Shown here piece after piece: positions 1,968 through 58,671 of a DNA stretch of 64,000 nt; the first letter of the stretch is position 1, and every line of letters begins with the position of its first letter. The DNA comes from a virus, in the IMG/VR virus record IMGVR_UViG_3300047666_000603, positions 9,239 through 73,238 of that record; one strand, 5' to 3'. Made by a program: the position numbers and the translations under genes. A model generated the notes under the pieces. It was not told the origin of the DNA. It worked only from the letters and a program-made list of their open reading frames with translations, and made no database searches.

Positions 1968-2188
1968 CAGAGTGTATCTTTTCTACCGCTAAACCCAACG
2001 TTAATTAGTGTGTATTTCTAACGCAAATCCACTAACGTTTTTTTTGTTGTGTTGGGTGTTACCCAGTGTGTGAGAATAAGTTGGCAATACAGGATGCTTG
2101 CGCCCCACCCCCTCGTTTATTTATTTTCAATGTAGTGTTGGTTCTTCCAAATATATTTACGTATATTTACGGAAACAAAACAGTAGCA

Positions 2189-2800
2189 ATGAAAAAAGTA
2201 ACAAAGAAATTACAGCAGTTTATTGATTCAATTTCAACCATTGGAGACAGTACTATACCTGATGATGATGGTAAGATTTACTATTCTAAAGTGGACGGCT
2301 CCTATTTAACAAGAGTTGGTATGGAAAACGATTTAAACTACCTATTGAAATTAGGAGTAAGTGAGCAAATACAGAGCGGGTATGGGGAGCCATCCACCGC
2401 TTGTATTGGATTTAACCCAACAGAGCAAAAATGGTACGGGTGGAGTCATAGAGCAATATATGGGTTTGGCGTTGGTAGTGAATGTAAAAAAGGATCGTGC
2501 GGATATTCCGCAAGCAATAAAAAAGATTTTGCAGAAGAAAATTTAAGGTGGTATTGCGACACAGACATGGATGAAACGTATAAAGTAGACATTTCTGCAA
2601 AAGAGGCAATACAAGAAGGTAAGTTAGGTGTTAAAGTTGAATATACATATAACAATAAAGTGCCAAACGAATCTATGAGAAGCACCACTCATTTTGTTTT
2701 TGAGCCGTATCCAAAGAAATGGGGGAAAGGAGAATGGACTGCAAACTCACTTAATGAAGCAAGAGAAATGGCTGTAGATTTCGCTAAAGGAGTTTCCTAA
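2189..2800 (+). CDS. Hypothetical phage protein in array 1 (IGFNPTEQKWYGWSHRA motif)
   Basis: ORF 2066-2800; ATG 2189 follows a TATATTTA box and A-rich leader. Confidence 0.75.
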   Translation: MKKVTKKLQQFIDSISTIGDSTIPDDDGKIYYSKVDGSYLTRVGMENDLNYLLKLGVSEQIQSGYGEPSTACIGFNPTEQKWYGWSHRAIYGFGVGSECKKGSCGYSASNKKDFAEENLRWYCDTDMDETYKVDISAKEAIQEGKLGVKVEYTYNNKVPNESMRSTTHFVFEPYPKKWGKGEWTANSLNEAREMAVDFAKGVS

Positions 2801-3034
2801 CCCCCGCCAAAAATAAACAACAATAGTAATGATATAAAGACACCATTAAGCGCAAAAGAAGCTGAACATCTATTGACTCAATTTCACGTGCAAAAGCCAT
2901 TAGGTGATTAATTTCCCCCAACACCAATAAAAGTCTTCCTATTAGGATTGTACAAAGGGAGTACTTATATTGTGGGGGTTAGTTTGTCCAGTTTTTTAAC
3001 TAATAAACTGGACTTTAACATAACATAAATAACT

Positions 3035-3256
3035 ATGAAAGAACAAGATACAAAGAACAACGTACTGGACAAATTACCCATAGGTGAGGCTGTAGAACGG
3101 TCTTCTTTTTGGTTTAATCAGTTAGGTGATTTTGAAAAATGGCTTAAATACTGCAAAATGATTGGTGTAAACACAAGGGAATCTTACAGAACAAATTTTA
3201 ATCAATATGAAATACTAGATTTATATGAATACCATAAAGCAATAAATAATCTATAA
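3035..3256 (+). CDS. Cassette ORF starting in a hairpin loop; stop TAA lies in the TAAC core
   Basis: ORF track; crosses degenerate core GCT at 3089. Confidence 0.65.
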   Translation: MKEQDTKNNVLDKLPIGEAVERSSFWFNQLGDFEKWLKYCKMIGVNTRESYRTNFNQYEILDLYEYHKAINNL

Positions 3257-3369
3257 CACCAACAGAAGTCCTTTCCCTTAACGTGGCATTATTAATAAAT
3301 GTAAATAATTAAGTGCGCAAGTGAATAAAAATATGCGTACATTAACCGATGATAATAAAAACGTGAGCA

Positions 3370-3600
3370 ATGAATAAGCCTGAAAATAGTTTAGATGTAG
3401 AGGATAAAATAGTTGATATAGTAACAGACCTTTTAAGGGATGATATAACCAAAACAGAAGCAATAGATAAGCTATTGATTTTACACAATGTTGTGGGGCG
3501 AAGCGAACAGTTAAAGGCTTTTGCTGAACACCTTGATGAAATGCATGGGGGTGAAGAATTTGCGGTAAATGAAGTTGAACCTTATTTAAAAAGCCTTTAA
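3370..3600 (+). CDS. Junction-spanning cassette ORF (LILHN-V-VGRSEQL)
   Basis: GTT 3490 read as Val; C-terminal half resembles that of ORF 49491-49715. Confidence 0.7.
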   Translation: MNKPENSLDVEDKIVDIVTDLLRDDITKTEAIDKLLILHNVVGRSEQLKAFAEHLDEMHGGEEFAVNEVEPYLKSL

Positions 3601-3669
3601 TTGCCTACAACGCTGAGTGTATGGCACGTTGCCAGCACTAACTTAATTAATAACACAAAGATTAAAGAT

Positions 3670-3888
3670 ATGGTAAAAGATAATTTAGAAAACGAACAGC
3701 AATGTGATATACACATTGTTAGGCATAGTTGCGAGATGATAACCGAAGAGTATGTTTATAAAAACGACTTTAGATTTCAACGAACACAGAAACACGGTAT
3801 TTGGTTTGTGACCTACGAAAACCACTTAATAACATTTGGACAATATAGACATGATTTAGAAGAATGGATTGATAGCAATTATGCCTAA
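3670..3888 (+). CDS. Junction-spanning cassette ORF (CDIHI-V-RHSC)
   Basis: ATG in hairpin loop, GTT 3718 in frame, stop in TAAC core. Confidence 0.7.
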   Translation: MVKDNLENEQQCDIHIVRHSCEMITEEYVYKNDFRFQRTQKHGIWFVTYENHLITFGQYRHDLEEWIDSNYA

Positions 3889-3990
3889 CGGTTTGGCTAA
3901 GATTACTAGCCTAAGTAATGAACTAATCAATTAAAAACTAAGCATCATAAGGCTATTAATTTTAGCCGTTGTTATGGTGCGTTAATTAAC

Positions 3991-4194
3991 TTGAAAATGA
4001 CAAAAGAAGAAAGGAATTTAGACCCACACAGACCTGCAAGATGCGCTATGTGGCTGTATGCTGACCAATATACTCAGCAGAAAGGTGGTAGTATGGATTT
4101 TTGGGATAAGCTATCTGATAGTGATAAAAACACTTGTAGAAGAATGGTAGAACAAATTTCTTGCACAAGACCTGAATCTGATGATGAGCGGTAA
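3991..4194 (+). CDS. Cassette-internal hypothetical protein
   Basis: Fills cassette 3971-4205. Confidence 0.7.
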   Translation: MKMTKEERNLDPHRPARCAMWLYADQYTQQKGGSMDFWDKLSDSDKNTCRRMVEQISCTRPESDDER

Positions 4195-4295
4195 TGCACC
4201 ATAACACCAAGAGAAGTGCCGTTACTTAATGGCATTTCTCGGCTGTTGGGCCGAGTTTTAATTCGGAATTTCTTTTATTTTCCATTTCCTCTACG

Positions 4296-4303
4296 TATAT
4301 TTG
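4296..4303 (+). promoter_or_regulatory. -7 box TATATTTG for the ligase/PNK/primase operon
   Basis: TAnnTTTG consensus 18 nt before ATG 4321. Confidence 0.6.
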
Positions 4304-4320
4304 GCAAAAATCTAAAACTT

Positions 4321-5214
4321 ATGGAGTTCAAAAAGTATATGCATCTTGAGCGTTTTGACGCAACAGAGGTGGAAAACATTGAAATAGGAACGTGCTATGT
4401 GTTCCCTAAAATAGACGGCACAAACGCTTCTGTTTGGCTTAATGACGCTGCTATTATCGCGGCGGGAAGTAGAACAAGAACACTTTCATTAGAAAAAGAC
4501 AATGCGGGGTTTTATGAGTTTGCTAGTCAATGTTCTGAGATAGCTGATTTTTTAGACTCCCACCCAACGCTTAGGCTTTACGGTGAATGGCTAGTTCCGC
4601 ACAGCCTCAAAACATACAGAGAAAACGCTTGGAGAGATTTCTACGTATTTGATGTAATGGATGATAGCGGAAGGTATTTACCTTATAATGAATACAAGTT
4701 GCTGTTAGATGAGTTTGATTTAAACTACATCCCGCCAATTAAAATCATCAAAAACGGAACATACGATGATTTTGTATTTCAAATGAACAGCAACAATAAC
4801 TACCTTATTGAAGACGGCAAGGGAATGGGAGAAGGTGTTGTGCTAAAGAACTACTCATTTGTAAATAAGTACGGAAGAACGACGTGGGCTAAAATAGTAA
4901 GTTCTGAATTTAAAGCAAAGCATCACAAAGAAATGGGTGCGCCCGAAGTGGAATATAAGATGGTGGAGAGTGATATTGTAGATAAATTCGTCACTCAAGC
5001 ATTATGCGAAAAAGTAAAGGCTAAAATAGAAATGGAGACAGGTGATTGGAAGTCGCAATACATCCCCCGACTATTAAACACTGTTTACTACGATTTAGTT
5101 AGGGAGGAAATGTGGGAGATAGTAAAGGAATTCAAGAAGCCTAAGATTGATTTTAAAACCCTTCAACACTTTACAAATAACAAGACAAAAGAACACTTAC
5201 CTAAAGTATTTTAA
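4321..5214 (+). CDS. RNA ligase, Rnl2-like nucleotidyltransferase
   Basis: Motif I PKIDGTNA, LYGEW, FYVFDV, GEGVVLK, WAKIV. Confidence 0.85.
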   Translation: MEFKKYMHLERFDATEVENIEIGTCYVFPKIDGTNASVWLNDAAIIAAGSRTRTLSLEKDNAGFYEFASQCSEIADFLDSHPTLRLYGEWLVPHSLKTYRENAWRDFYVFDVMDDSGRYLPYNEYKLLLDEFDLNYIPPIKIIKNGTYDDFVFQMNSNNNYLIEDGKGMGEGVVLKNYSFVNKYGRTTWAKIVSSEFKAKHHKEMGAPEVEYKMVESDIVDKFVTQALCEKVKAKIEMETGDWKSQYIPRLLNTVYYDLVREEMWEIVKEFKKPKIDFKTLQHFTNNKTKEHLPKVF

Positions 5215-5216
5215 AA

Positions 5217-6110
5217 ATGATAAGAGCATACATAGGAATTTCAGCGAGTGGGAAAACAACCCTTTGCAAGGGCGATATGAAATTAAATACTAATTCTGTT
5301 AGAGTTAATAGAGATGATTTACGTTTTGCTGTTTACGGTCTTGATTACGATTCTTACGGTGATTATTTTAAGCGTGATGATTTTTACAGGTGTGAGCAGT
5401 TTATATCTGATTTAGCGGATAGAATTGTTTCTCGCGCCATATCTAAGGGAAAAGATGTTTACATAGACAACACTCATCTAAAGCAAAAATATCTAAAGAA
5501 ATATTACACTTACGGAGTGGATGTTGAGCTTGTTTGGTGTGATGTAGATATTGATCTTGCGCTTCATAGAAACGTAAATAGAAAAGACCATTTTGTTGAC
5601 TCTGAAATAATCAAAAAGCAAAATGACTCTTATGAAATTATAAAGAAGAATTGGAAATCACCCGATGAAGTTGCGGAAAGAAAGATACATAATAACTCAT
5701 TAAAAAAGAAGTGTTACGTATTTGACATTGATGGAACGCTTGCAGATAAAGGAGATAGAAACCCCTATGATTATTCGCGTGTTTCAGAAGATGGTCTTAG
5801 AAATTCAGTTCTTGACGCTTATTTAGCCCATTCTTTTGACGGAAAAGAGATGATTATTTGTAGCGGAAGAGATAGTTCATGCAGAACAGAAACAGAGGAT
5901 TGGTTAACGAAGAACCAAGTTTATTACACCACTCTTTACATGAGGCAAGAGGGAGACTCAAGGGCTGATTGGAAAGTGAAAGAGGAGATGTGGGATGAGA
6001 TATGTAAAGATTATTATATAGTGGCTATGTATGATGATAGAAATCAAGTTGTAGACCACGCTAGGAGTCTTGGTTTTGATGTATTTCAAGTACAGGAGGG
6101 AAACTTTTAA
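5217..6110 (+). CDS. pseT: Polynucleotide 5'-kinase/3'-phosphatase (T4 PseT-like)
   Basis: P-loop GISASGKTT, RDDLR, HAD motifs DIDGT, SGR, DDR. Confidence 0.9.
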   Translation: MIRAYIGISASGKTTLCKGDMKLNTNSVRVNRDDLRFAVYGLDYDSYGDYFKRDDFYRCEQFISDLADRIVSRAISKGKDVYIDNTHLKQKYLKKYYTYGVDVELVWCDVDIDLALHRNVNRKDHFVDSEIIKKQNDSYEIIKKNWKSPDEVAERKIHNNSLKKKCYVFDIDGTLADKGDRNPYDYSRVSEDGLRNSVLDAYLAHSFDGKEMIICSGRDSSCRTETEDWLTKNQVYYTTLYMRQEGDSRADWKVKEEMWDEICKDYYIVAMYDDRNQVVDHARSLGFDVFQVQEGNF

Positions 6111-7873
6111 TGATGGTAACAATATTTGATAGTTTGTACGACGACAAGCCTGTGTATTCTGAGGCTAATGATGTTTTAAGTGCTTTTGCTGTTCGCGGCA
6201 AGCATTACAGCACAATAGAGAGAATAAGAAACAGCAAAGAGAAGGGGGAGAGGGATGAGTTGAAGAAAACATTGCCCATTGTTTGCTTCGGTGGGAGATT
6301 TACAGCTAGGAAGAAAGCGGCCTTAGAGAAAGCATCCCAACTCATAATCTTAGACTTCGATGAGGGGGAAAACCTAAAAACTGTAAGAGAGAGAATGGAG
6401 AAATGGAATTGCACATATTCCTGCTTTTCCTCTCCAAGCGGCGGGGATAGATTCAAGGCTCTCGTGAAGATAGATGAGGTGAAGGATGATGAGGAATTTA
6501 AGGAGTATTTTGATTTCTTTGAGCGCAATTACAGCGTAGACATAAGTGGGAAGGACATTTCTCGTGCTTGTTTTTCTACATACGACCCCGATATATACAT
6601 AAACGCAAACGCTAAAGTATTTACAAAAGAAATGCTAAAGAAATATGCCCCAAAGCCGCCAAGGAAACAAACAGACCAAAAGCTAATAGAGCTTGTGAGT
6701 AATTGGATACGGCTTGCTCCCCAAGGAACGAGACAACATAATTGCTGTAAAGCTGGATTTTATGCGGGAGGTTTAACAAAGATGGGGCAATTAGAACAAA
6801 CCTCAGCACTCGCGGCATTACATCAAGCAGCCCAAGATAGGGGCGGGGAAATAGATCAGAGCATAAGAGCAATAAACGAGAGCTTCGAGCAAGGAAAGTT
6901 GCGGCCAATTCTAAACATAAACGAACTGGACAATGTAGTGAGGGGAATGAAGAAGAAGGTGGTGGATGTAAAGAGCCTGATTGTTTCCCCTGATAAGATG
7001 AACCAACAATCAGAAGACCTATACGAAGGAAGGCTTGAAATGGGAAGGGGAATAGGAATAGCCAACTTCGATAAGTTTGTGAGGTTTAGACAGAACTCAT
7101 TTACGTTTATAGTAGGGAAGCGTGGAGTGGGGAAAACAGCCACCACCCTCTACCTATTATGTCTTGACGCGGCAAAGAACAACACCAAGTATTTAGTGTG
7201 CGGAATAGAGAACAGCAGCTTCTCGCTAAGAAACCAACTCATTAGTTTCTATTTAAGGGAAAGAGCCGCCGAAGCATACAAAACAAACAAAATAGGACTG
7301 AGAGCAGCGGAGGAATTTATAGACAGCCATTTCGTTTTCATACAATACGATGAGGCATGGGAGATAGCAGACATATTGAGCATAGCAAAACAGTTAGACG
7401 AGGAGCATAACTTCGGAGGGCTGTTCATAGACCCCTACAACGCTGTTACAGTTCCTAACGTACCAAATACATTTAAGTACCACGTAGACTCTGCAAATGC
7501 TTGTAGAATGTTTAGCGACAGGCATTTTAGTGTATTGCTTACAGCCCACCCCAACAGCGCAGGGCAAAGAGAGGCGGGAACCCCCTCTGACGTGATGGCT
7601 GAACATGGCGGCACATTTCCCAATAAAGCGCACATGACAATGGTAGTGGATAGGAACGCGAAAGCAGAGGGTGAGGAGAAATACACGACAAGAGTGAGTG
7701 TAGATAAAGTGAGAGACAAGGATATATTTGGGGGAGACGAAACCGCAACGGAATTTCCAATAGTGATGAGGCTAAACCCGATAAACGCAACATTCATAGC
7801 CCACCTCCCGATTCACGGAGAATCAAACTATGAGTTTAAAACATACGACTTAATGTCGGAAGTAAAGAAATAA
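6110..7873 (+). CDS. Primase-helicase: VirE-N/BT4734-like (AEP) domain plus SF4 DnaB-like helicase
   Basis: KKTLP..FGGRF, LDFD, SPSG, KDISRACF.TYDP; Walker A GKRGVGKT, FIDPYN, AHP. Confidence 0.8.
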   Translation: MMVTIFDSLYDDKPVYSEANDVLSAFAVRGKHYSTIERIRNSKEKGERDELKKTLPIVCFGGRFTARKKAALEKASQLIILDFDEGENLKTVRERMEKWNCTYSCFSSPSGGDRFKALVKIDEVKDDEEFKEYFDFFERNYSVDISGKDISRACFSTYDPDIYINANAKVFTKEMLKKYAPKPPRKQTDQKLIELVSNWIRLAPQGTRQHNCCKAGFYAGGLTKMGQLEQTSALAALHQAAQDRGGEIDQSIRAINESFEQGKLRPILNINELDNVVRGMKKKVVDVKSLIVSPDKMNQQSEDLYEGRLEMGRGIGIANFDKFVRFRQNSFTFIVGKRGVGKTATTLYLLCLDAAKNNTKYLVCGIENSSFSLRNQLISFYLRERAAEAYKTNKIGLRAAEEFIDSHFVFIQYDEAWEIADILSIAKQLDEEHNFGGLFIDPYNAVTVPNVPNTFKYHVDSANACRMFSDRHFSVLLTAHPNSAGQREAGTPSDVMAEHGGTFPNKAHMTMVVDRNAKAEGEEKYTTRVSVDKVRDKDIFGGDETATEFPIVMRLNPINATFIAHLPIHGESNYEFKTYDLMSEVKK

Positions 7874-8062
7874 ATGTTATATTGGCATATGGAAAACAAA
7901 GAAATTTCGGTTCTTTTGAAAGAAAGACTACAAGACATTGAAAAAAAATTAAAAGGTAGAGATTTTTATTTAATTAAATATGTAAAAGAAGAGGTTATGA
8001 TGTCCTATTCTGATGGATATAAAGACGCTTCTGATGTTGCTAGAAAGATTTTTTACAAATGA
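7874..8062 (+). CDS. Small hypothetical protein
   Basis: ORF abutting the helicase gene. Confidence 0.5.
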   Translation: MLYWHMENKEISVLLKERLQDIEKKLKGRDFYLIKYVKEEVMMSYSDGYKDASDVARKIFYK

Positions 8063-8159
8063 AAGAATTATTATCAATAGTTATTCCAATATTGCTTGCT
8101 GTTTTGTTATTTTGGTTTTGTTTTATTAGAACCCAAGATTGGGACGGGGGAGATGTATT

Positions 8160-9032
8160 ATGAAAGAAAAATTACTTGTAAGTTTCAGCGGCGGCGAAAC
8201 ATCTGCGTATATGGTGTGGTGGGTAAAGAAACACTGGGCTAATAAATACGATATAAAGTTTGTATTCGCCAACACTGGTGAGGAAAACGAAGAAACACTT
8301 TTGTTTACTAAAAAGTGCCAAGAATATTTTAATATTGATTTAGTTTGGGTGGAGGCTGTATTTCATAAAGAAAAAGGAAAAGGAACTACTCATAAGGTGG
8401 TTCCTTTTGAAGCGGCGGAAAGAAGTAATAAACTATTTATGGATATGGCTGCGGTATATGGGATACCAAACCAAATGTTTCCCCACTGCAACAGGGAGCT
8501 AAAACTAGCCCCAATTAAGTCTTACTTGAGAAGTGTTGGGTGGAAAAAATATCAAACAGCTATAGGGATAAGAAATGATGAAATAGATAGGGTTAACGTA
8601 AATAGAGAAAAATATAGGCTTTTATATCCGTTAGTTACAGATCAACCAATGACAAAGCCTAAAATAAACTTTTGGTGGTCACAACAACCATTCAGGTTAA
8701 ATTTAAAGGGTTATCAAGGAAACTGCAAAACGTGTTGGAAAAAGGGTGATAATAAATTGTATCAAATAGCAAAAGAAAATAGACGGTTTTTTGACTCATT
8801 TAAAGAAGTTGAAAAAACTTACACTAATTTTGTTCCAGAAGGAAGAAGTGCTACGGATGAAAAGATTACATTTTTTAGAAGGGGGAGGTCTACGGAGCAG
8901 ATATTAAAAGAAGCGGAAAATTTTAACGGTGTAGTAAGAGATGATTCCGCCGAAATAAATTATCAAACATCAATACTAGATTACGATGAAAGTGAAAGTT
9001 GTGATATTTATGCAATGTGTGGGGATAATTAA
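8160..9032 (+). CDS. PAPS-reductase-family protein (possible DNA modification)
   Basis: PP-loop SFSGGETS, FANTG.E, C.RELK, GNCKTCWKK. Confidence 0.85.
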   Translation: MKEKLLVSFSGGETSAYMVWWVKKHWANKYDIKFVFANTGEENEETLLFTKKCQEYFNIDLVWVEAVFHKEKGKGTTHKVVPFEAAERSNKLFMDMAAVYGIPNQMFPHCNRELKLAPIKSYLRSVGWKKYQTAIGIRNDEIDRVNVNREKYRLLYPLVTDQPMTKPKINFWWSQQPFRLNLKGYQGNCKTCWKKGDNKLYQIAKENRRFFDSFKEVEKTYTNFVPEGRSATDEKITFFRRGRSTEQILKEAENFNGVVRDDSAEINYQTSILDYDESESCDIYAMCGDN

Positions 9033-9041
9033 AACAGCACT

Positions 9042-9155
9042 ATGAGCGAACAAAGAAGAAGACGACGTAAGATGCAAAGGGAATACGAGAAGTATATGCG
9101 AGAAATACGTAGGGATGCTTTTAAGAGAGCCGAGGAGCAGAAGGAAGAGAAATGA
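9042..9155 (+). CDS. 37-aa Arg-rich peptide (MSEQRRRRRKMQREYEK...)
   Basis: ATG 9042 to TGA 9155, read by eye; below the ORF-track cutoff. Confidence 0.45.
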   Translation: MSEQRRRRRKMQREYEKYMREIRRDAFKRAEEQKEEK

Positions 9156-9160
9156 TTTTT

Positions 9161-9206
9161 AACACTAAGCTAAGTTCCGTTATTTCAATGGAATTTAGCG
9201 GCTGTT
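9161..9206 (+). repeat. Solo (empty) attC-like site
   Basis: AAC-actaa-gctaagttccgtt-atttc-aatggaatttagc-ggct-GTT; same layout as array-terminal sites at 4203, 16588, 26441. Confidence 0.75.
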
Positions 9207-9224
9207 AGAAGTTGTTTCTTTTTT

Positions 9225-9260
9225 CAATAACAAGGAGCAAAACAGAGAGTGTTACTTTTG
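9225..9260 (+). promoter_or_regulatory. Putative late promoter CAATAAC-N21-TACTTTTG
   Basis: One of 7 copies with identical spacing. Confidence 0.7.
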
Positions 9261-9280
9261 GCTAAACAAAACCGAAAGAA

Positions 9281-11428
9281 ATGTCTGTCACAAGTACTTC
9301 TGCGAAAATAAAGTTTACCATAGGTAGTTTTGACTACGATACAACGTTAGTTCTTCCCGCCACAACCGAAGAAAATAAACTCACATTAGAGTTTGAGGAA
9401 TTAGTAACAAGTCAGCTTACGGGTTGGGGTGATATTCCTAGAGATGTATACGTTCTATTAGATGTAAAGTTTGAGGGAGAGGATTGGTACAAGAACCCTC
9501 AATACGACAGCCCAAGCACAACCCTAGTCCCAACAGACCCCGATATTACAATTGTTCCAGACGCAAATCCAGCAACGGTAGAGACTGTAACGATAAACAA
9601 CCTTGTGCCTATGGTGACAGATATAAGTGGAGACATTTCTATTGGAACATACATAGTGAACGCTAAGTTTGTTTATTGGGCTAATGACACGGCATTTGGC
9701 TCTAGTGTTACAGCATTTACGGCAGACTTATCATGGGAGAGTAAGGAGCCAACACTTTCAGAGTGGTACGACACCCAAACCCCAAAACTACAAATAACAG
9801 ACGGTCAAAGCTACGTAATAGACGGGGTGACGGCAGATAGAGACACGGAGTTTGTTCTTTCCCCACCACAAAACAGAGCGGAAGTGGTAAACACCTTTGA
9901 CAACATTCAAAAGGTGTCTTACACAAGTTTTTGGACGGGAGGTAATGAGATGACCTATACGATTCTTCTCACCTACACATTCACCACCTACATCATTGAA
10001 AACGTACAGCAAGACTACAGTGCATTTACGGTGTACAATATAGACAACTGCAAAATATTTAATTGCCTCAAAGACCAATACGACATTTGGCAAGCGGCAA
10101 CTTGCGGAACAAAGAATGAAGTGGTGGCTAAGGACATGTTGTACAAAGCAACCTCAATAGCCTTACAAATAACACAAGGGTTAGGATGCAATAGCGATGA
10201 ATTGAGTGCGCTTATAGAAGACTTCAACACATTAGTAGACTGCGACTGCGGCTGCTTAGATGAAACACCAACACAACTTGGAAGCACAAGCACTGTAACG
10301 GCCACAAACCGACAAACTGTAACAGCAGACACAGCCACCACAACCATAGACCTAAGCGCGGGAAGTAACGTAACAATAAACGTAAGCGCAACTACAGAAT
10401 TAGACATCACTAATATTGAGCAGTTTACAAACTACAGATTAATATTTGTAGCCTCAGCAGGAGGGGAAGTGATTTCATTCCCATCAGCCGACTTTGAGGA
10501 TGACAACGGTGTAGTGGGTGATATAACGTTAGATGTGCGCGGCGTTCTTATACTTGATTTTTACGCATACCTATCCACTAAGCTAACATTAGTGAGTAGA
10601 AGTGATGCTGATGATTACGATAGAGATTTACAGCAAGTTTCCGCTACAACAGCAGCAACATCTGTAGATTTGAACGAGGGAAACATAGTTAATGTAGCTC
10701 TTGCTGTAGGGGGAGGCACAACAGAAATGAGTGTCACAAATATAAAGGAAAACGACGAATATATGTTTATATTTAGTCGGGGTTTTTCTACGCAAGAAGC
10801 AACATTCTCTTCCGATTTCAATGGCCCAAATGCCACTGTACCTTCTGTAACACCACTACTTGATGATAAAGTGGTTCTTTCATTTATAGCCACATCATCT
10901 AGTGAATTGACACTAACATCGAGAAGTGATGAAGTTACAAGCGCGGTGGAGACAGTGGTGGGAACGGCAACAGAAATAGACATTGACTCCGCAGATGCTC
11001 AAAATCCTATTGTTTCTTTAGCGGTGGAAGTAACAGCATCATTAGCTCTAGCCGACTCCGCATTGCAGAGTGGTGATAACGTGAGTGTGTTAACGAATGA
11101 TGCGGGGTATATTGTTGGTTCTTTTCAAGATGTTGGAGCGCAAACAAGCCCTTACACCATTAATTTTGCAAGCGGTAGTATAGCGTATTTAAGTTTTGCT
11201 AATGCCGCCATAACTATAGATGCTTCTAGCATAATTGAGGGAAGTGAGTATAAGATAATAATTAGAAATTCAGGCGCAGGCTCACAAGACGTAACCCTAA
11301 CAACAGACCCTTTTTGGTCTTTTGCAGCCATTTCCGTTGGTTCAACGCAAGTATTGGGGATTACTTTTGTTTGTGTTGATATTGGGGGTACAAATTACCT
11401 AGTTCCAACAGGTCAGCAAATAAACTAA
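9281..11428 (+). CDS. Virion tail-associated protein (hub/fibre-like) with three repeated beta domains
   Basis: Thr/Ser/Val-rich; central CDCGC Cys cluster; repeats TTIDLSAGSN / TSVDLNEGNI / TINFASGSI; heads a late operon. Confidence 0.55.
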   Translation: MSVTSTSAKIKFTIGSFDYDTTLVLPATTEENKLTLEFEELVTSQLTGWGDIPRDVYVLLDVKFEGEDWYKNPQYDSPSTTLVPTDPDITIVPDANPATVETVTINNLVPMVTDISGDISIGTYIVNAKFVYWANDTAFGSSVTAFTADLSWESKEPTLSEWYDTQTPKLQITDGQSYVIDGVTADRDTEFVLSPPQNRAEVVNTFDNIQKVSYTSFWTGGNEMTYTILLTYTFTTYIIENVQQDYSAFTVYNIDNCKIFNCLKDQYDIWQAATCGTKNEVVAKDMLYKATSIALQITQGLGCNSDELSALIEDFNTLVDCDCGCLDETPTQLGSTSTVTATNRQTVTADTATTTIDLSAGSNVTINVSATTELDITNIEQFTNYRLIFVASAGGEVISFPSADFEDDNGVVGDITLDVRGVLILDFYAYLSTKLTLVSRSDADDYDRDLQQVSATTAATSVDLNEGNIVNVALAVGGGTTEMSVTNIKENDEYMFIFSRGFSTQEATFSSDFNGPNATVPSVTPLLDDKVVLSFIATSSSELTLTSRSDEVTSAVETVVGTATEIDIDSADAQNPIVSLAVEVTASLALADSALQSGDNVSVLTNDAGYIVGSFQDVGAQTSPYTINFASGSIAYLSFANAAITIDASSIIEGSEYKIIIRNSGAGSQDVTLTTDPFWSFAAISVGSTQVLGITFVCVDIGGTNYLVPTGQQIN

Positions 11429-11431
11429 TAA

Positions 11432-12094
11432 ATGCTTATAAACGAAATATACGAGGTGTTTAGGCAGATGGTAAACTCCCAACAGTCGGGAGGGTATTTC
11501 AACGCCACAAATTTCAACAACTATTGCGACTACGCACAGAACGCTGTAATAAACGAACTAAGCGAAATAGCCGACTACAACCAAAGGGTGATAAGCCTTT
11601 CCTCGGACGTTTTAAAAACAGCCACAATAAACGTTGTAGACGGTATAGCAGCTCTACCAAGCGACTATTTCATATACTTGGATGCAAACGCTATGTTCTA
11701 CGACAATGATGCTAAGAAGTTCGAGGAATACCCCGCAGACTATGTGGGCAAAAGCGAGAGAGGTGAAAGACTTAGAAGCAAGATAGTAGACCCACAATCA
11801 GACTACCCTATAATTACAGAGGGGTTTGGAGGGCTTTTAGTAGAGCCGAGTGAAGTGAGTAGGATAAAATTAACATATTACTTTCAGCCTGACGCGCCAG
11901 TGTGGGCGGGAACAGACACCGTACCTCCCGTATTTGACCCCAACACAAGCACAGACTTCGTATTGGGTGATAAGTTCAAGAACATATTAGTGAATAAAAT
12001 CCTTTCCTACGCGGGAATAGAAATACGAGAGCCTTATTTGCTCCAAGCGACAACACAAAGCCTTATAAAACCAACAGGAAACCCCACTAACTAA
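11432..12094 (+). CDS. Tail ring/tubular protein (crAss ring-like)
   Basis: F..Y...AQN, LPSDY, LTY..QP, ILVNKILSYAGI pattern and size. Confidence 0.7.
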   Translation: MLINEIYEVFRQMVNSQQSGGYFNATNFNNYCDYAQNAVINELSEIADYNQRVISLSSDVLKTATINVVDGIAALPSDYFIYLDANAMFYDNDAKKFEEYPADYVGKSERGERLRSKIVDPQSDYPIITEGFGGLLVEPSEVSRIKLTYYFQPDAPVWAGTDTVPPVFDPNTSTDFVLGDKFKNILVNKILSYAGIEIREPYLLQATTQSLIKPTGNPTN

Positions 12095-12720
12095 TGGCAA
12101 CACCACACCCTATATCTCTAAGCAAAATAGGTGAGAGAGTTAAGAGGCTGTTAAGCGCAGGAAAAGACCTTGTAGAAAACAGGGTGACACAAAGGGATGC
12201 TGAATTAGCTGTAGCCGAAGCAAGGGATGAATCAATAGTGGAGTACTTAGGGCAGCTGAAAGCTGCGGGAGAACCCGCTATGCCATTTGATTTTATAAGC
12301 GAGAAAACCGTAACAGCAGAGAAGTCGGGGAACCTACACAAAGCAACCCTACCCACACGTCCTTTATCAATAGGAGGAAAAGCAAGCGGAATATTTACAG
12401 TGGTGTTTGAACAAGACCCCTCACACGAAATATTCCCAACAACAATAAGCCACAACACAATGTTTAAAGGCCAACCCGCAGAGAACATGGAGAGTGATGC
12501 TTATTACACACCATTCGAGGACACTTTAAGAATATGGGGGTTAGAAACCGATAGCTGCAATATAATAGTTCAATACGTACAAGTGGGAGAACAGTTTGAT
12601 GCAGATGAATATTTCGCTGTGCCACCCGAACTTATTGATACGATAGTGGCTAAAGCCGTTAAAATGCTCTCAATGCAACTTTCCCAAGAAGACCCATTTA
12701 CCGACGCGAAGAACCTTTAA
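12094..12720 (+). CDS. Tail ring protein
   Basis: Coupled to previous gene; C-terminal VPPELIDTIV motif typical of ring/adaptor proteins. Confidence 0.6.
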   Translation: MATPHPISLSKIGERVKRLLSAGKDLVENRVTQRDAELAVAEARDESIVEYLGQLKAAGEPAMPFDFISEKTVTAEKSGNLHKATLPTRPLSIGGKASGIFTVVFEQDPSHEIFPTTISHNTMFKGQPAENMESDAYYTPFEDTLRIWGLETDSCNIIVQYVQVGEQFDADEYFAVPPELIDTIVAKAVKMLSMQLSQEDPFTDAKNL

Positions 12721-13583: not shown

Positions 13584-13625
13584 ATAGCTATAAGTGTTTT
13601 ATATTTACGTGCAAATATAAACAAA

Positions 13626-14798: not shown

Positions 14799-14903
14799 GC
14801 ATTTTTACAGGAGTGAACACAACGTCAGATGATGAGTTTGACGAGATAGTGTATTTCCTATACGGAGAATTTGAACATTGCGAAACAACCTATATTACAA
14901 CAC

Positions 14904-15953: not shown

Positions 15954-15963
15954 TTTTTATTCG

Positions 15964-15971
15964 TATATTTG
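15964..15971 (+). promoter_or_regulatory. -7 box TATATTTG directly upstream of array 2
   Basis: TAnnTTTG, 13 nt before AAC 15985. Confidence 0.6.
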
Positions 15972-16056
15972 GAGGGTTAATTACAACGGTTTAAATATAG
16001 TGTCGTGGCGCACCCAATAAATGCCACTAAACTTAAAAATTGGTAAATATTTGATT

Positions 16057-16272
16057 ATGAAAAACAGACTTAAATTTAACCTGCGCTATGCACTATATTT
16101 TGTGTTGTGTGTAGTGCTTTTATCTAGCTGCGTTGAACGTAGGTGCTATGATGAAGAGCATATACTGTTAATAACCGAAAATGCCTTTTTAGAAGGATAT
16201 AAAGCAGCATTAATGAAGCAGCACCAAGATAGTGCGTGGAATAATGTGAAACAGCAATACAAGTTTGACTAG
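16057..16272 (+). CDS. Putative lipoprotein spanning a cassette junction
   Basis: MKNRLK..YALYFVLCVVLLSS-C lipobox. Confidence 0.6.
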   Translation: MKNRLKFNLRYALYFVLCVVLLSSCVERRCYDEEHILLITENAFLEGYKAALMKQHQDSAWNNVKQQYKFD

Positions 16273-16322
16273 TATTACACACAATGGACAAGGCTAAACG
16301 AAGTAATTTAAAAAGATTTGAA

Positions 16323-16589: not shown

Positions 16590-16642
16590 CACCAAGCTAT
16601 AAAGCGTTTCAATGCTTTTATAGCGTCTGTTGTGATTTAATA

Positions 16643-53951: not shown

Positions 53952-54701
53952 TTATTGTTTATAATTTCCATTCTCAGGGCAAGCCGTTTGCCCACAAATA
54001 TTTTTGCACCAAAACCAAGAAGGCTTCTTCTCCCATTTGGTTTCTGCTTCTATCTTCCCCGCGACATCATCCACCCAAGCAGCCACCTTATTGTATTCCT
54101 TTAAATCAAACACCTCTGTTAGCTTCTCATTATATCTAGCCATGTAAAAGCTCATGCTCTTTGGGTATTTGCCGTATTTCTCTTTGACATATCTCGCATA
54201 GATGTAGAGTTGGCGTTTCTTAGTTTCAAACTTCTTGCCGCGAAACCCATCAATACCAGAGGTTTTCCAATCCCAAATATAGTAATCTTTCCCGTCAAAA
54301 AGAACTAAATCAGCAAATAATTTCACCTTTCTCCCACTAATTGTAACAACACCCTCACCTTCTATACCCACCACTTCACCCTCAAACTTAGCAAATACAT
54401 CAGGGAGATGGTCAAGGAAAGCAATACATTCATTCACCCATTTCTCAGCATATTCCTTCCTCATATTGTCAAAGGATAGAATAGGCGTTCCAAAATAAAA
54501 CCAATCCGATGCTTCTGAGTGTAATATAAGCTCTTTGAGGACATTTTCTACAGCTTCATGTAGAAAGCTTCCGCCCGTAGACCAATCGTTCCCAATTTCA
54601 GGTAGTTTTAGGTTATAGGTGCAATGATAGCTGAATGGGCAAGTTTCAAACTTATCAAGACGGGAATAGCTATATACCTTCTCTTTAATCATAAGCAACA
54701 A
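53952..54701 (-). CDS. PD-(D/E)XK exonuclease (Cas4/RecB-like, Fe-S Cys)
   Basis: SYSRL...CP, ADLV, DWKTS, QLYIY, CKNIC...CP. Confidence 0.85.
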   Translation of the reverse strand: MLLMIKEKVYSYSRLDKFETCPFSYHCTYNLKLPEIGNDWSTGGSFLHEAVENVLKELILHSEASDWFYFGTPILSFDNMRKEYAEKWVNECIAFLDHLPDVFAKFEGEVVGIEGEGVVTISGRKVKLFADLVLFDGKDYYIWDWKTSGIDGFRGKKFETKKRQLYIYARYVKEKYGKYPKSMSFYMARYNEKLTEVFDLKEYNKVAAWVDDVAGKIEAETKWEKKPSWFWCKNICGQTACPENGNYKQ

Positions 54702-55051: not shown

Positions 55052-55417
55052 TTAGAATGGTAAATCATCTTCACCATCCAATATAGGGCTTGTTGTTCCT
55101 CCCGATTGATCTGCAAAAGCTTGCTCCTGACTAGCAAAAGCATCTTTCTTTACGCTAGAAGATTTAGTCACCTTCCAGCCCTCGATGTTGCTGTAGAATT
55201 TGCCAGAATGTTCCCTCCCGCGCAAATTAATAGCAACCTCCACCTCATCACCCTCATTCACACTGTCTAGTAGTGCTATTCTATCCTGTGTAAATTCGAC
55301 GGGAACGAACTGTGGGTATTTTTCATTGGGGTCTGTAATCACCACCACCCTTTTCTTAAACTTGTCGCTAATTTGCTCTATTGGCAATAGCTTGTGTACT
55401 TTTCCTGTAATCTCCAT
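55052..55417 (-). CDS. DUF3127-type single-stranded DNA-binding protein
   Basis: MEITGKV, FKKR, YPQFV..EFTQD, NLRGRE, acidic DDLPF tail. Confidence 0.88.
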   Translation of the reverse strand: MEITGKVHKLLPIEQISDKFKKRVVVITDPNEKYPQFVPVEFTQDRIALLDSVNEGDEVEVAINLRGREHSGKFYSNIEGWKVTKSSSVKKDAFASQEQAFADQSGGTTSPILDGEDDLPF

Positions 55418-56133: not shown

Positions 56134-56913
56134 ATGAACCACACGGAAAAACTTAAAGGGTATATAAACGAACTAAAAGAGGAGTTAAAGAAATCCCTGA
56201 TTAACAAATACGGAGAGGAAAACGAGAAGAGTATTGGATGTGATATTGACATTCAGACGATACCGATAAGAAATACTTCGGCGTTTCATTACGATAGGTC
56301 AGCGCACCAATTTGACGCGGAAATAGAAATCATTTTGACTGAGATTAATAAGAAGTATTTTAGTGAAGAGGGGTAGTTAGATTTACCTTAAACGATTTAT
56401 CAACGGAAACAGTTTTACCACTTCCGTTTTCAATACTGAAAAAAATGTTTGATTCACTTAATTCCTCCACAGCTTTTTTTATTTGACTTTCTAGTGCGTA
56501 AATATTAAACAACTCCTTAACGTCTATTGAATTTGGTGCTTTATCCATTCTCCAAATTTACTACCTTGACTAACCAACCTTGTTATTGAAATATGAAACG
56601 AAAAGTGATTTATCCAAAATCAGATGTAGAAAGTTCGGAAAAAATATACGCCAAGGTATTTTCAGACAAAAATAAGTTTGTCGTTAAAGAAAAGGAAGCG
56701 CAGCTATTTGGCAGGGCTTATAATGGTGAAAAGATATACGAGCCTTATGTGCTAGAGGTTTTTTTATTTTGGTTGCTATCACCCCGTAAGTTTTTCTTAG
56801 AAATTTGGTCAGACCTAACGATTGAGCGTAAAATAGATATTGTGTTTAATGTATTAGCTACTACAACAAGCATCATTGCTATTATTATAAGTGTCATTGC
56901 TTTGAATAAGTGA
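56134..56913. CDS. Three ORFs inside one cassette (56134-56376 +, 56360-56548 -, 56593-56913 + with C-terminal TM)
   Basis: ORF track; within cassette 56094-56940. Confidence 0.55.
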
Positions 56914-57097
56914 ATAAAAAAAATAAATACGCGCCCCAACAAAACCTATACTGCATAGCCTTCGGCATACGCAGCATAGCTTAAGCGTTGGCATTCATTT
57001 AGACAATTCTCTCCAGTAATTTATTTTATCACGGTCGGACATGAATGCAGATGCAGTTCCGCACAATTCGTAAAAATCCATTTTTAATATTTCTGTA

Positions 57098-57340
57098 TCA
57101 GTCATTTTTCAATCCCTCTTTTTTGCAAAAACTAACCATCTTGTCTTTTAACCATTTTCTATGTTCTTCGTCTCCATGTTCAATTTCTGTAAATAGCTGC
57201 ATTATCTTTGTACAGGCAAATTGATTCATCGCATCAATCGCATCAGGATATTTAACATACCCCGTTTCATCATTGTCAAGTTCATCGGTTTCGTTAAACC
57301 ACTCTCTTCCAAATTTTGTTATGTATTCTCTTGCTTCCAT
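57098..57340 (-). CDS. Cassette hypothetical protein (HGDEEHRKWLK motif)
   Basis: Within cassette 56987-57363. Confidence 0.7.
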   Translation of the reverse strand: MEAREYITKFGREWFNETDELDNDETGYVKYPDAIDAMNQFACTKIMQLFTEIEHGDEEHRKWLKDKMVSFCKKEGLKND

Positions 57341-57438
57341 AAAATCAAAAACGAAATGCCAACATTGGCTAAAAAGCATAGCCGCAATGTCAGCGGGTTA
57401 TTGAGGCGTATTACAGGCTACGCTTCTTAGCCTTACCG

Positions 57439-57729
57439 TTATAAGCAATAACGAGTGTTCCACTTATCAAGGATGCTTTGCCAATGCCACTCAAACATAG
57501 GTGAATATGTTATGGTATCTCCTTTATTTTCTACGCATTCCACACTTTCATAAACACTTGGTCTTGTGTGGCAATCGTTGTTATTGCAAGTTATTTCAAC
57601 GGTTGATGGCACATAGTTTTTATCTACATTTGGTTTTTCTCCACAGAAGGGGCAAGGTAAAGCACTGCTTATAACATTAGCTATACTCAATGCCTTAATT
57701 TCTGCTTTTTTTGAAGTTTCTTGTTCCAT
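57439..57729 (-). CDS. Lar-like (restriction alleviation) zinc-ribbon protein spanning a junction
   Basis: LPCPFCG...C....C...WNTR; starts in hairpin loop, SIAN-V-ISS, stop in TAAC core. Confidence 0.7.
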   Translation of the reverse strand: MEQETSKKAEIKALSIANVISSALPCPFCGEKPNVDKNYVPSTVEITCNNNDCHTRPSVYESVECVENKGDTITYSPMFEWHWQSILDKWNTRYCL

Positions 57730-57803
57730 TTTAATTTTTGTTTTATAAGTTATCTTAGTTTTTCAAATGTCGGCACTAAGCATAGCCAAACCGTTGTAGC
57801 CAA

Positions 57804-58267
57804 TTAAGACCAAAACCCTTTTTCAATCATCCAATCACTTATTTTCTTTATTTCAGTCCATAGCAATATCAAAGAGTCTGTATCTTTTAAATGGTCTGTC
57901 ATATCATTTGCTTTTATATCATCATCATTTTCAAGTGATTTAGGATATATCAAATCATATAATTCAATCTTTTGTTCTTTCGTTAATTCTTTCATTTTTC
58001 GTTTATTAAAATAACTGGCTACAACAACGTGTATAGCACATTAAAACGATGCCATACACACAGCGTTGTGGTGCATTAGATATACGGCATATAACTACTT
58101 TGACCTTTAGCCTTTTCTAATTCTAAATCAGCATGAAGGGAAAGTATTTCTTTTTCTCTTTCAATTACTCTTTTTGCGTAGGCATCTAAGCTAAATTCTT
58201 TCCATTCACCATTTGGTGTGTGCTTATAATATAATCTACCTTCAATCCATTTTTCTGCGTAATACAT
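57804..58267 (-). CDS. Two single-ORF cassettes (57804-57995; 58076-58267)
   Basis: Each ORF fills its cassette. Confidence 0.7.
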
Positions 58268-58500
58268 AGTTCTTTAATTTAACGCACCTAACATTAAATA
58301 AAAATGCATTGAAACGACATTTTATTAAGGTCGTTGGGATGCAATTAAAAAAGACATACAACAATAAATATAAGTAATGGGTGTGGTATGCTGTCGGGAT
58401 TATTCTTACAATATAAAACAGCCCTTACAAAGTCACCGTGCTTATAGCAGTTCATCCACCCACTACTCATATTTTTTGCCGTTAGCAACCATTAAAACGG

Positions 58501-58671
58501 TCACTTCGTTTTGCTAACAACGGGTATAGCAAATGTATTTAACTTATTTTTTAGCTCTATTAATGCTTTTTCTGTTAAGAAGCTTTTTAGTTCGCCAAGT
58601 TGTACTACATATTTAATAGCTTTGTTACTGCTATATTTGTCTTTGTCTGTTTTCAATCTTACTTCAATCAT
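58501..58671 (-). CDS. 56-aa leader ORF of array 4 ending FAIPV-V-SKTK
   Basis: Read by eye, ATG 58671 to TGA 58501; crosses core at 58518. Confidence 0.55.
   Translation of the reverse strand: MIEVRLKTDKDKYSSNKAIKYVVQLGELKSFLTEKALIELKNKLNTFAIPVVSKTK

Follow-up and report, generated by a model that had tools for sequence, protein, structure and literature searches.

The locus raises the question of whether a phage can hold and exchange accessory genes as integron-like cassettes with a recombinase that it does not encode itself. The window, the whole stretch of 64,000 nucleotides that was analysed, belongs to a lytic-type 73-kb phage of marine Flavobacteriia and contains some 20 hairpin sites whose AAC...GTT cores are invariant, arranged as four arrays and one solo site (Table 1). 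Our best reading, to which we give a probability of about 55% on the basis of sequence comparison, is that the sites belong to an integron-like, non-IntI cassette system whose recombinase would be supplied in trans. The original prediction, that the phage collects and shuffles genes by hairpin recombination, is partly supported, and its observation of hairpin-bounded cassettes is confirmed. On this reading, a marine flavobacterial phage that lacks a recombinase holds small accessory genes, one of them an anti-defence gene, in exchangeable units whose conserved bounding hairpins resemble integron recombination sites.

Table 1 Features of the hairpin-bounded arrays (window positions)
Feature	Positions	Strand	Evidence or remark
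Array 1: weak AAC...GTT hairpin upstream of the Tad6 gene, membership doubtful	1994-2040	+	By eye; R1 did not match
Cargo gene, Tad6-like Thoeris inhibitor, stop inside TAAC	2189-2800	+	Pfam PF25188, E 1.6e-37
Long-loop site AAC-CCCCGCC ... GGGGG-TT, nested anchor-like hairpin 2915-2985	2799-2985	+	Contig breakpoints 2804, 2916
Cassette ORF, 73 aa	3035-3256	+	Missing from one natural contig, joint 2934 to 3271
Truncated anchor site, left arm only	3251-3275	+	
Long-loop site S4, loop with ATG and 16-codon leader reading through the right arm	3598-3732	+	
Cassette in 15-nt inverted repeat (14/15), ORF end 3888	3718-3889	+	
Long-loop site S5	3875-3986	+	Breakpoint at 3967
Cassette in 14-nt inverted repeat (13/14), ORF 3997-4194	3971-4205	+	
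Anchor hairpin A, final site of array 1, adjoins RNA ligase gene	4192-4257	+	R1 67.1 bits
Solo unoccupied anchor hairpin D	9150-9217	+	R1 65.4 bits
Array before portal gene: first AAC core, two ORFs with internal relic repeats, anchor hairpin C 16577-16644	15979-16644	+	
T1, first site of array behind capsid-region gene	25303-25362	+	R1 37.6 bits
Cassette with tRNA-like RNA as cargo, 18-nt closing bracket	25352-25491	+	
Long-loop site T2, then empty 29-nt cassette 25613-25641	25480-25641	+	
Site T3, extended apex	25631-25727	+	R1 20.3 bits
Two cargo ORFs, decayed site between (about 25950-26053)	25715-26431	+	
Anchor hairpin B, final site of capsid-region array	26429-26496	+	R1 69.4 bits; right flank complements T1 left flank
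Minus-strand array start: mini-hairpin 58481-58520, long-loop site 58355-58490, empty cassette 58335-58363, site E 58276-58347	58276-58520	-	
Cassette ORF 58076-58267 and site F 58009-58078	58009-58267	-	R1 56.1 bits
Cassette ORF 57804-57995 (10/10 bracket), then long-loop site G 57670-57806 holding the next ORF's ATG	57670-57995	-	
Cassette ORF 57439-57729, 10/10 bracket inside coding ends, then site H 57353-57448	57353-57729	-	
Cassette ORF 57098-57379 (9/9 bracket), then site I 56930-56997	56930-57379	-	R1 27.3 bits

From 5′ to 3′, each site consists of a left flank, AAC, a spacer of 4-5 nt, a variable stem, an apex, a return stem, a spacer of 3-4 nt, GTT and a right flank, and the attC-like grammar claimed for the sites is thus borne out. 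The apex is closed by CGT..ATG and mostly reads CGTTTYAATG. A covariance model, R1, trained on eight compact sites (five from the window and three from relatives), produced ten window matches at E <= 0.1, with E-values as low as 7e-16; five of these were expected by construction and five are new (T1 and T3 on the plus strand; sites H and I and 58282-58343 on the minus strand). The long-loop sites S4, S5, T2 (25480-25625), G and 58355-58490 were recognised by eye, and the total comes to the roughly 20 sites that had been proposed. In the eight-site alignment, 92% of the paired cells are complementary compared to 33-48% when the partners are slid, and two-sided changes occur in 7 of 13 inner-stem pairs. 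The invariant cores lie exactly at the helix junctions and their positions are paired in 25, 25 and 24 of 25 aligned sites, while the inner stems differ between neighbouring sites. Stop codons were predicted to fall often within a TAAC core, and this was seen at 2798, 3254, 3886, 16587 and 57439; several other sites have the stop in TAAT, 9-11 nt upstream of AAC. The loose "AAC + hairpin + GTT" pattern, with 47 matches in the phage genome, mostly within genes, is equally common in control DNA. The loose grammar alone is not specific; what goes beyond chance is the conserved family together with the logic of its flanks.

The unit between two hairpins opens with GTT and a flank and closes with a flank and AAC. 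When each right flank was scored against 17 left flanks, the one at the following site came first in 10 of 12 cases. It outscored the own-site left flank in 11 of 12, own-site flanks pairing poorly (scores 3.5-9.5). This complementarity runs 10-18 nt past the triplet. All four sequence pairs originally quoted as showing that the start of each cassette complements its own end were located, at 3718-3732/3875-3889 (14/15 complementary), 3971-3984/4192-4205 (13/14), 25352-25361/25482-25491 (10/10) and 16482-16490/16582-16590 (9/9). The same pairing was found by eye in L080 (two cases), in a host contig, L150 (3/3), and in Polaribacter phage P12002L (2/4); an automated test on the IMG/VR matches ranked only two of five consecutive pairs first, one miss being traced to an undetected intervening site. 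The outer ends of whole arrays are also complementary over 0.7-2.6 kb, in the capsid-region array (score 10, rank 1 of 22), the portal array (score 9, rank 1 of 22, tied) and the corresponding capsid array of the closest relative, L015 (score 9, rank 1 of 22), with the L015 portal array at rank 3 of 22. At unoccupied site D the site's own flanks pair at 14 positions, four of them G.T (score 14, rank 1 of 22). Pairing flanks together with pairing outer ends are what insertions made one after another into a hairpin docking site would leave behind.

These structures could instead act in RNA, the hairpins being intercistronic processing, stabilising or terminating elements, the brackets 5′-3′ stems that close each cistron like rRNA processing stems, and the turnover a product of ordinary phage recombination. 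We consider this unlikely, although several observations agree with it. Among 85 sites, 42 lie on the same strand as the upstream ORF and 6 on the opposite strand, stop and start codons are built into flanks and loops, and the sense strand carries conserved G.T pairs at two stem positions and folds more strongly than the antisense (-20.0 compared to -17.0 kcal/mol; 17/25 sites). The RNA fold predicted for 57340-58100 (z -6.0) includes the hairpins as well as the bracket stems, and the ORF at 57439-57729, whose homolog in Cellulophaga phage phi10:1 is without sites, keeps its bracket complementarity within the coding ends even though this entails amino-acid differences from phi10:1 gp107. However, outer-end pairing over such distances is hard to select in RNA and is expected from insertion, and the opposite-strand cargo of L150 and of the 6 sites out of 85 has its sites and brackets intact. 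The G.T excess is confined to three fixed positions, G.T being about as frequent as A.C elsewhere in the 25 aligned sites; true terminators with T-runs stand separately at 24130 and 25262; and the sites matched no Rfam family.

Comparison with related genomes is consistent with cassette exchange. The cassettes occupy four variable loci, and in the three closest relatives the cargo between conserved genes is wholly different while the terminal anchor hairpin is the same, with compensatory stem changes. Similarity to contigs from other samples breaks at 2804, 2916, 3612, 3967, 9206 and, at anchor hairpin A, 4202/4203, 4247 and 4250, all within 4 nt of a core. Related DNA therefore does differ at site borders, as predicted, but not solely at G|TT, as breaks occur on both sides of the hairpins, the AAC side included. 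Two-sided breakpoints are expected from any exchange between genomes that share just the hairpin, and unitig ends also favour repeats. Relatives carry a whole hairpin where the window has the truncated anchor (joints 4247 to 3269 and 9206 to 3271). S4 is 74% identical to L016 281-396 and the genes on either side differ, indicating that the link between a hairpin and a given cassette is not strict; the right flank of T3 is identical to L016 665-689 over 25 nt, and site I is 82% identical to L015 16802-16874. No site borders the accessory block at 7874-9040, which also differs from L015, and gene flux may in part bypass the sites.

R1-family sites were detected in related phages of a podovirus-like clade, in Mu-like prophages, in 60 IMG/VR stretches, in 22 of the 151 Flavobacteriales genomes sampled and in the siphovirus P12002L, where five matches each lie 3′ of a gene in methyltransferase/Mom regions (gp36, gp37, gp40, gp54 and gp55). 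This supports the proposal of a distinct Bacteroidota site class. Family, covariation, flank logic, distribution and border differences can all be read directly from the sequences, and the sites form one conserved family of foldable hairpins that mark the joints of small accessory-gene cassettes.

Portable homology might explain the same turnover with no site-specific enzyme, if the phage's own recombination genes exchanged cassettes between hairpins as in the PeSLs of T4-type phages, which are direct repeats of a sigma-70 promoter and a G/C-rich terminator exchanged by homology (PMC2839356, PMC4122927). The phage does encode a RecB-like exonuclease (53952-54692) and an SSB (55052-55417), the joint 2934 to 3271 falls within a pair of homologous left arms, shared hairpins show breakpoints at either edge, a perfect tandem triplication in G080 ends in an anchor site, and PeSL mini-circles are reported to arise without an integrase (PMC2839356). 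We nevertheless find this improbable, since neither the inverted repeats specific to each cassette nor the complementary outer ends are expected if direct repeats exchange by homology, the differing inner stems of neighbours leave little homology available, and the invariant cores sit exactly at helix junctions.

The cassette reading calls for a recombinase. The earlier claim that the window lacks an integrase holds for the whole 73,238-bp phage genome, in which no match to a tyrosine recombinase (PF00589), serine recombinase (PF00239) or Y1 transposase (PF01797) was found. Host contig L150, with three sites and antisense cargo, carries an adjacent 356-aa recombinase that is XerA-like (NF040815, 237.9 bits against a cut-off of 220). 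Its homologs co-occur with R1 sites at the genome level (14/39 vs 8/112 genomes; Fisher p 5e-5, uncorrected for phylogeny and genome size) and lie within 5 kb of a site in two genomes; of 14 host loci around such homologs, just two have significant R1 matches. Tyrosine recombinases are absent from 39 of 44 viral records with an anchor site, and the other five encode ORFs of 379-426 aa, three at a distance of over 30 kb from the site. A host recombinase acting in trans on the phage cassettes, as originally proposed, is plausible from this neighbourhood and co-occurrence; the recombination itself we infer.

That the sites are classical attC sites (CALIN) mobilised by a true host IntI is very unlikely. 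Their conserved triplet, spacers and chimeric sites follow attC grammar (Cury et al. 2016, PMC4889954), and the P12002L region with R1-family sites has been described as an integrase-less attC cluster (CALIN) with methyltransferases in a virulent phage, one attC site of which was recombined by IntI1 (Qi et al. 2023, PMC9892861). Clusters of attC sites carried by phages without an integrase have thus been published before, and that part is not new. However, none of the five site-holding genomes searched (5/5) has an IntI above the TIGR02249 cut-off, 301 sampled genomes of the order gave no IntI match in a search with no positive control scoring, and the IntegronFinder 2.0 paper describes complete integrons as very rare in Bacteroidetes. 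The L150 recombinase was rejected as a classical IntI (score 175, cut-off 265; the match is in two stretches, the first ending at model position 175 of 315), and the apex is conserved in sequence, unlike the variable terminal structure of attC. Hardly credible is that the hairpins are MITE-like and insert on their own by a host transposase, the cassette pattern being secondary, for although site D is absent from L015, the two sequences differing there by a clean indel of about 65 nt, and the family is patchily distributed among relatives, brackets and outer-end pairing would be unexplained, the phage has no Y1 transposase and no target duplication was seen at site D.

Under the preferred integron-like reading, for which the evidence of recombination is entirely comparative, cassettes would enter successively, each through a site-specific crossover at the AAC/GTT core of the hairpin that serves as docking site, much as in integron attC x attC insertion. 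Each insertion would leave a cassette with mutually complementary ends, and the original site would be split, one half ending up at either extremity of the array. The anchor hairpin is always at the 3′ end, so that the crossover probably falls on the AAC side and a cassette would have its hairpin 5′ of its gene, in keeping with the start codons in hairpin loops. Enzyme, strand and crossover point are likewise what we infer, and the best candidate enzyme would be a host XerA-like tyrosine recombinase, not a classical IntI, acting in trans.

Among known systems, phages of the CTX-phi type have no integrase and integrate folded single-stranded DNA through the host's Xer-family recombinase, the substrate being a hairpin that one strand forms. 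The likeness to the present system, by analogy, is a host Xer-family recombinase on the hairpin of an integrase-less phage; the difference is that CTX-phi integrates its whole genome at dif and does not exchange cassettes. PeSL cassettes share repeated intergenic stem-loops on either side of orphan genes in the hyperplastic regions of lytic phages (PMC2839356, PMC4122927), whole-cassette differences between relatives and the lack of a dedicated recombinase, whereas the sites described here have no promoter part, stems that vary by site, invariant cores, and cassettes with their own inverted repeats. Integron attC/CALIN sites share the imperfect hairpin, the conserved AAC/GTT triplet, short spacers and variable apex length (PMC9892861, PMC4889954), a position 3′ of promoterless-looking ORFs in a single orientation, chimeric array sites, so that the cassette start complements its own end, the occurrence of ORF-less cassettes and counter-defence cargo. 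In contrast to attC/CALIN, the phage has no IntI and none was found in the sampled host order, the sole array-adjacent recombinase seen here is XerA-like, the apex sequence is conserved and complementarity extends well beyond the triplet. Docking into a hairpin site and not attI would account for the pairing outer ends, also unlike attC/CALIN, the 3′ position of the anchor hairpin points to a reversed crossover polarity, ORFs have their starts in loops and run on through cores, and several loci occur in one phage.

The hairpin sites of the window share one layout: each is intergenic, and its hairpin, whose apex is closed by CGT..ATG (usually CGTTTYAATG), is separated by short spacers from an AAC on the left and a GTT on the right, beyond which lie a left flank that often contains a stop codon and a right flank. 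About 20 are present: besides the four arrays there are decayed copies and a solo site, in agreement with the original prediction, and the four complementary cassette-end pairs that it quoted sit where it had placed them. The stem sequence varies from site to site, as does the position of bulges within the stem, and the apex ranges from 4 to ~170 nt, with CGTTTYAATG common to the compact sites; the long-loop sites were identified by eye. Eight compact sites were aligned, of which the window supplied five, its closest related viral contig, L015, two and L052 one; paired cells made up 92% of the alignment, compared with 33-48% in slid controls, and 7 of the 13 inner-stem pairs had changed on both sides. 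Of 25 aligned sites, the three core pairs formed by AAC and GTT were standard in 25, 25 and 24, and they were invariant in all eight of the compact set, while the spacers are 4-5 and 3-4 nt long and their two nominal pairs were standard in just 8/25 and 12/25 sites. R1, a covariance model of the compact sites, matched 34 times at E <= 10 across 735 kb and, within the window, ten times at E <= 0.1; five of these ten were not among the sites used to build it. A loose scan for AAC, hairpin and GTT was dropped as evidence since it was unspecific (one scan gave 47 matches, mostly in genes; in another, shuffled sequences gave a mean of 6.7) and matched control regions as often as recombinase regions, so the claim rests on the site family instead; a stricter regular expression missed known sites.

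The source contig is 73,238 bp long, the window covering its bases 9239-73238, and has a terminal overlap of 127 bp, from which the genome is probably complete. Annotation with PHROGs and Pfam named a portal, a large terminase, structural proteins and a primase-helicase, the recombination-type genes being a RecB-like exonuclease and an SSB, as well as a PAPS reductase, a Tad6-type Thoeris inhibitor, an RNA ligase with a polynucleotide kinase and, outside the window, NAMPT with PRPP synthase; the last three entries amount to a heavy counter-defence load. Relatives were recovered through TerL alignment only, as neither a structural gene compared by megablast with cultured phages nor one protein scanned against viral contigs led to any. 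The nearest cultured phages by TerL (26-28% identity) infect Maribacter, Flavobacterium, Cellulophaga and Tenacibaculum, and the closest environmental relative, L015, is syntenic, with 75% TerL identity and ~70% nucleotide identity. Eight TerL homologs (P0008, P0022, P0053, P0055, P0069, P0070, P0072 and P0082) are 1039-1064 aa long and have Pfam domains of inteins or homing endonucleases. The motif CAATAACAA (in one copy CAATAACAT) occurs ahead of structural genes and recurs at the equivalent positions in L015 and, with one base different, in the second close relative, L016; a late promoter element is a possible role.

Coordinates of the features discussed (window positions unless another sequence is named)
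Feature	Sequence	Position	Strand
Array 1	window	to 4257 (last site 4192-4257)	
Tad6-type Thoeris inhibitor gene	window	2189-2800	
Breaks in similarity, Logan contigs	window	2804, 2916, 3612, 3967, 4202/4203, 4247, 4250, 9206	
Joints left out, Logan contigs	window	1700->2148, 3513->3598, 3974->16183, 2983/3013 and 7941/7974 pieces	
Joint that goes back, Logan contigs	window	3367->2916	
Cassette missing from one Logan contig (2934 joined to 3271)	window	3035-3256	
Long-loop site S4	window	3598-3732	
Loop encoding shared leader	window	3670-3720	
Loop encoding shared leader	L016	336-390	
Loop encoding shared leader	L080		-
RNA ligase and polynucleotide kinase genes	window	4321-6110	
NAMPT and PRPP synthase genes	whole genome	3982-6625	
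PAPS reductase block	window	7874-9040	+
Solo unoccupied site D	window	9150-9217	
Motif CAATAACAA	window	~9226, 16617, 21470, 26500, 31790, 40860	+
Terminators with T-run	window	24130, 25262, 47200	
Unit with tRNA-like RNA	window	25352-25491	+
Empty unit, 29 nt	window	25613-25641	
Site I	window	56930-56997	-
Cassette ORF with phi10:1 homolog	window	57439-57729	
Empty unit	window	58335-58363	-
Tandem triplication	L148	8600-10340	

Among 17 sites, taken from the window, L015 and L016, every right flank was compared with every left flank. In 10 of 12 consecutive pairs, the highest-scoring partner of a right flank (rank 1 of 17) was the left flank of the site that follows, and in 11 of the 12 this next left flank outscored the site's own. 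Every unit, from one hairpin to the next, thus has its own closing inverted repeat of 8-18 nt, here called a bracket. A bracket is also present on the unit with tRNA-like RNA cargo and on the 29-nt empty unit; the minus-strand empty unit gave no bracket signal (next 4.0, own 4.0, rank 12 of 17). Brackets were found by eye in two cases in contig L080, in 3/3 on the bacterial host contig L150 and in 2/4 in the Polaribacter phage P12002L, and an automated run on compact IMG/VR sites placed the expected partner at rank 1 in only 2/5, one miss being caused by an undetected site between the two. The outer ends, that is, the first left flank and the last right flank of an array, paired at rank 1 of 22 in two window arrays, the solo site and one L015 array and at rank 3 of 22 in a second L015 array, window array 1 giving only weak, tied scores. 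Outer-flank variants at the same locus differ between the window and L015, yet are matched within each. The tRNA-like RNA has a 7-bp acceptor-like stem, lengthened by the cassette bracket, and a perfect T-arm; it folds at -47 kcal/mol (z -3.5) and was called by neither ARAGORN nor Rfam.

These two footprints match what would be left if circular cassettes were inserted one after another, by single crossovers, into a self-complementary hairpin, whereas homologous exchange between direct repeats and a purely RNA-level role each fail to predict both. This favours an integron-like, non-IntI cassette system with a recombinase supplied in trans, to which we give a probability of about 0.55 from the sequence comparisons. 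Since arrays always close at their 3' end with the anchor hairpin, an R1 match, and the loops contain start codons, the crossover is suggested to fall on the AAC side, and each cassette would then bear its hairpin upstream. That the hairpins instead act at the RNA level is unlikely given the paired footprints, and neither the counts of G.T versus A.C nor the sense versus antisense energies tell RNA from DNA.

The cargo between conserved genes is unrelated among the window, L015 and L016, and the arrays of all three finish in the same kind of anchor hairpin adjoining a core gene, with compensatory stem changes among the relatives. Site D is cleanly absent from L015, and the closest copy of site I, the last minus-strand site, lies in another array of L015. 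Hairpin S4 and its loop-encoded leader are common to the window and L016, with different genes on either side. The same leader, M-(T/V)-(K/E)-D-N, is encoded by loops of three unrelated contigs, the third being L080, and reads in frame into differing proteins, among them an N6 methyltransferase. The unrelated Cellulophaga phage phi10:1 encodes a homolog (76% identical) of one cassette ORF, without sites around it; relative to that homolog, both coding ends of the window ORF have been altered into mutual complementarity. The block of two small genes and the PAPS reductase is absent from L015 and has no site at its borders, which counts against all gene flux using the sites.

Natural variation was followed by placing Logan contigs of four runs, all of them assembled, on window 1500-17500. 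All of the breaks in similarity listed lie 4 nt or less from an AAC or GTT core, and one contig lacks a whole cassette; joints with short sides or 31-mer repeats were left out, and assembled contigs tend to end at repeats. A joint that goes back was also seen. The original prediction had proposed checking whether relatives differ by indels ending exactly at G|TT: the breaks do fall at the cores, on either side of the hairpin rather than at G|TT alone. The comparison supports modular turnover at the sites, and since exchange between genomes with only a hairpin in common would give the same breaks, the contigs leave the mechanism unproven. The nearest phage precedent needing no recombinase in the literature as accessed, the PeSL cassettes of T4-type phages, combines a sigma-70-type promoter with a G/C-tract terminator stem-loop acting as direct repeats; the phage sites have instead A/T-rich stems that differ from one another and, as judged by eye, no conserved promoter part. 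PeSL-like homologous shuffling is improbable, more so than an RNA role.

The window had been reported to lack an integrase, and this extends to the whole genome, which has no PF00589 match (controls 14/14) and, in six frames, none to a tyrosine recombinase, serine recombinase or Y1 transposase. No IntI above its family cut-off was found in five site-bearing genomes or in 301 sampled genomes, the latter a weak result as no positive control matched in that search. The host contig L150 carries three R1-type sites with matched brackets and antisense cargo, followed by a 356-aa recombinase that passes the NCBIfam XerA/'integron integrase' model (237.9 bits, cut-off 220) and fails the IntI model TIGR02249 (175 bits, cut-off 265), which it matches in two stretches, the first ending at model position 175 of 315. 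Homologs of this recombinase occur in 39/151 sampled genomes, and R1 sites were found in 14/39 genomes with a homolog versus 8/112 without (p 5e-5, ignoring phylogeny and genome size); in 2 genomes homolog and site are no more than 5 kb apart. As significant R1 matches were present at only 2/14 recombinase-homolog loci, the link of the XerA-like recombinase to the sites is no more than suggestive. The tyrosine recombinases in 5/44 site-bearing viral records resemble ordinary prophage integrases, and two of the five lie less than 3 kb from a site. In two viral records, L126/L145 (G344) and L102/L147 (G324), a ~400-aa tyrosine recombinase lies ~170 bp and ~2.9 kb from an anchor site. Recombination of classical attC sites by IntI has very little probability here, even with the report of Qi et al. 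2023 that IntI1 recombines one P12002L attC site (PMC9892861). Least credible are MITE-like hairpins. Hairpin elements derived from IS200/IS605 would come with subterminal hairpins, a fixed target tetranucleotide and a Y1 (HUH) transposase, to which (PF01797) the phage has no match.

The R1 family reaches TerL relatives down to 30% identity, if not every one of them, and R1 matched nothing in 4/5 viral records of TerL relatives. A strict pattern found 60 stretches in IMG/VR and 8 in bacterial genome contigs, the latter nearly all Bacteroidota and two of them (Maribacter, Sunxiuqinia) within Mu-like prophage regions; R1 itself matched 22/151 genomes sampled from the order to which the Maribacter genome belongs. 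Among 85 unique sites, open frames of at least 60 codons end in the left flank in 42 sense versus 6 antisense cases. P12002L has five R1 matches, directly 3' of gp36, gp37, gp40, gp54 and gp55 in methyltransferase/Mom regions, and these fall in the methyltransferase region that Qi et al. term CALIN (PMC9892861), a likeness by region. In contig L148 (G080:C85), an 832-bp unit of three small genes is triplicated in near-perfect tandem, every copy ending with an anchor hairpin and then a mini-hairpin of the same apex.

A wider proposal, which we hold at somewhat below even odds, is that of a separate gene-capture system common to Flavobacteriia, prophages and lytic phages, with its own site class and an XerA-like, non-IntI recombinase, through which phages without a recombinase would, at several loci, swap counter-defence genes; cores can fall in frame within genes, so such a system could also make chimeric proteins. 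Were the sites recombination joints, lytic phages without an integrase would gain and lose counter-defence genes by this route, such as Tad6 here and DNA methyltransferases in relatives, with cassettes plugging into fixed docking hairpins, and phage hyperplastic regions would be tied to an integron-like system in a phylum nearly devoid of classical integrons. The short sites, the empty docking site and a nameable candidate enzyme make the system directly testable.

Phage-borne, integrase-less attC clusters are already in print: Qi et al. (PMC9892861) describe 17, among them that of the virulent phage P12002L with methyltransferase cargo. New relative to published accounts, as far as the consulted portions go, are a defined site family spread across phage types, multi-locus arrays with nested footprints and an empty docking site, reading frames through the cores and an XerA-like candidate enzyme; literature searches judged by title and abstract gave no account of a Flavobacteria-specific system. 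Complete integrons are very rare in Bacteroidetes according to IntegronFinder 2.0.

Across the 64 kb, Rfam 15 gave one chance-level match only and ARAGORN 0 tRNA genes. Unlike intrinsic terminators, the sites have no T-run, and real terminators with one stand separately. The spacers of attC sites may differ in length from the 4-5 and 3-4 nt of the phage sites. As in integron attC, paired AAC/GTT triplets stand at the base of an imperfect hairpin, and as in attC arrays, sites are chimeric and the start of a cassette is complementary to its own end, features set out by Cury et al. 2016 (PMC4889954). The same source gives attC a variable terminal structure of 20-100 nt that is poorly conserved in sequence, whereas the phage apex is conserved in sequence and varies in length alone. 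A cassette with its hairpin upstream would also be the reverse of an integron cassette, and a complete integron has an attI and an adjacent IntI with an extra domain of its own, an integrase that the phage lacks and for which the recombinase of the L150 array scores below the cut-off. The proposed cassette system works like an integron and, for want of an IntI and on account of its apex, is not to be filed as one.
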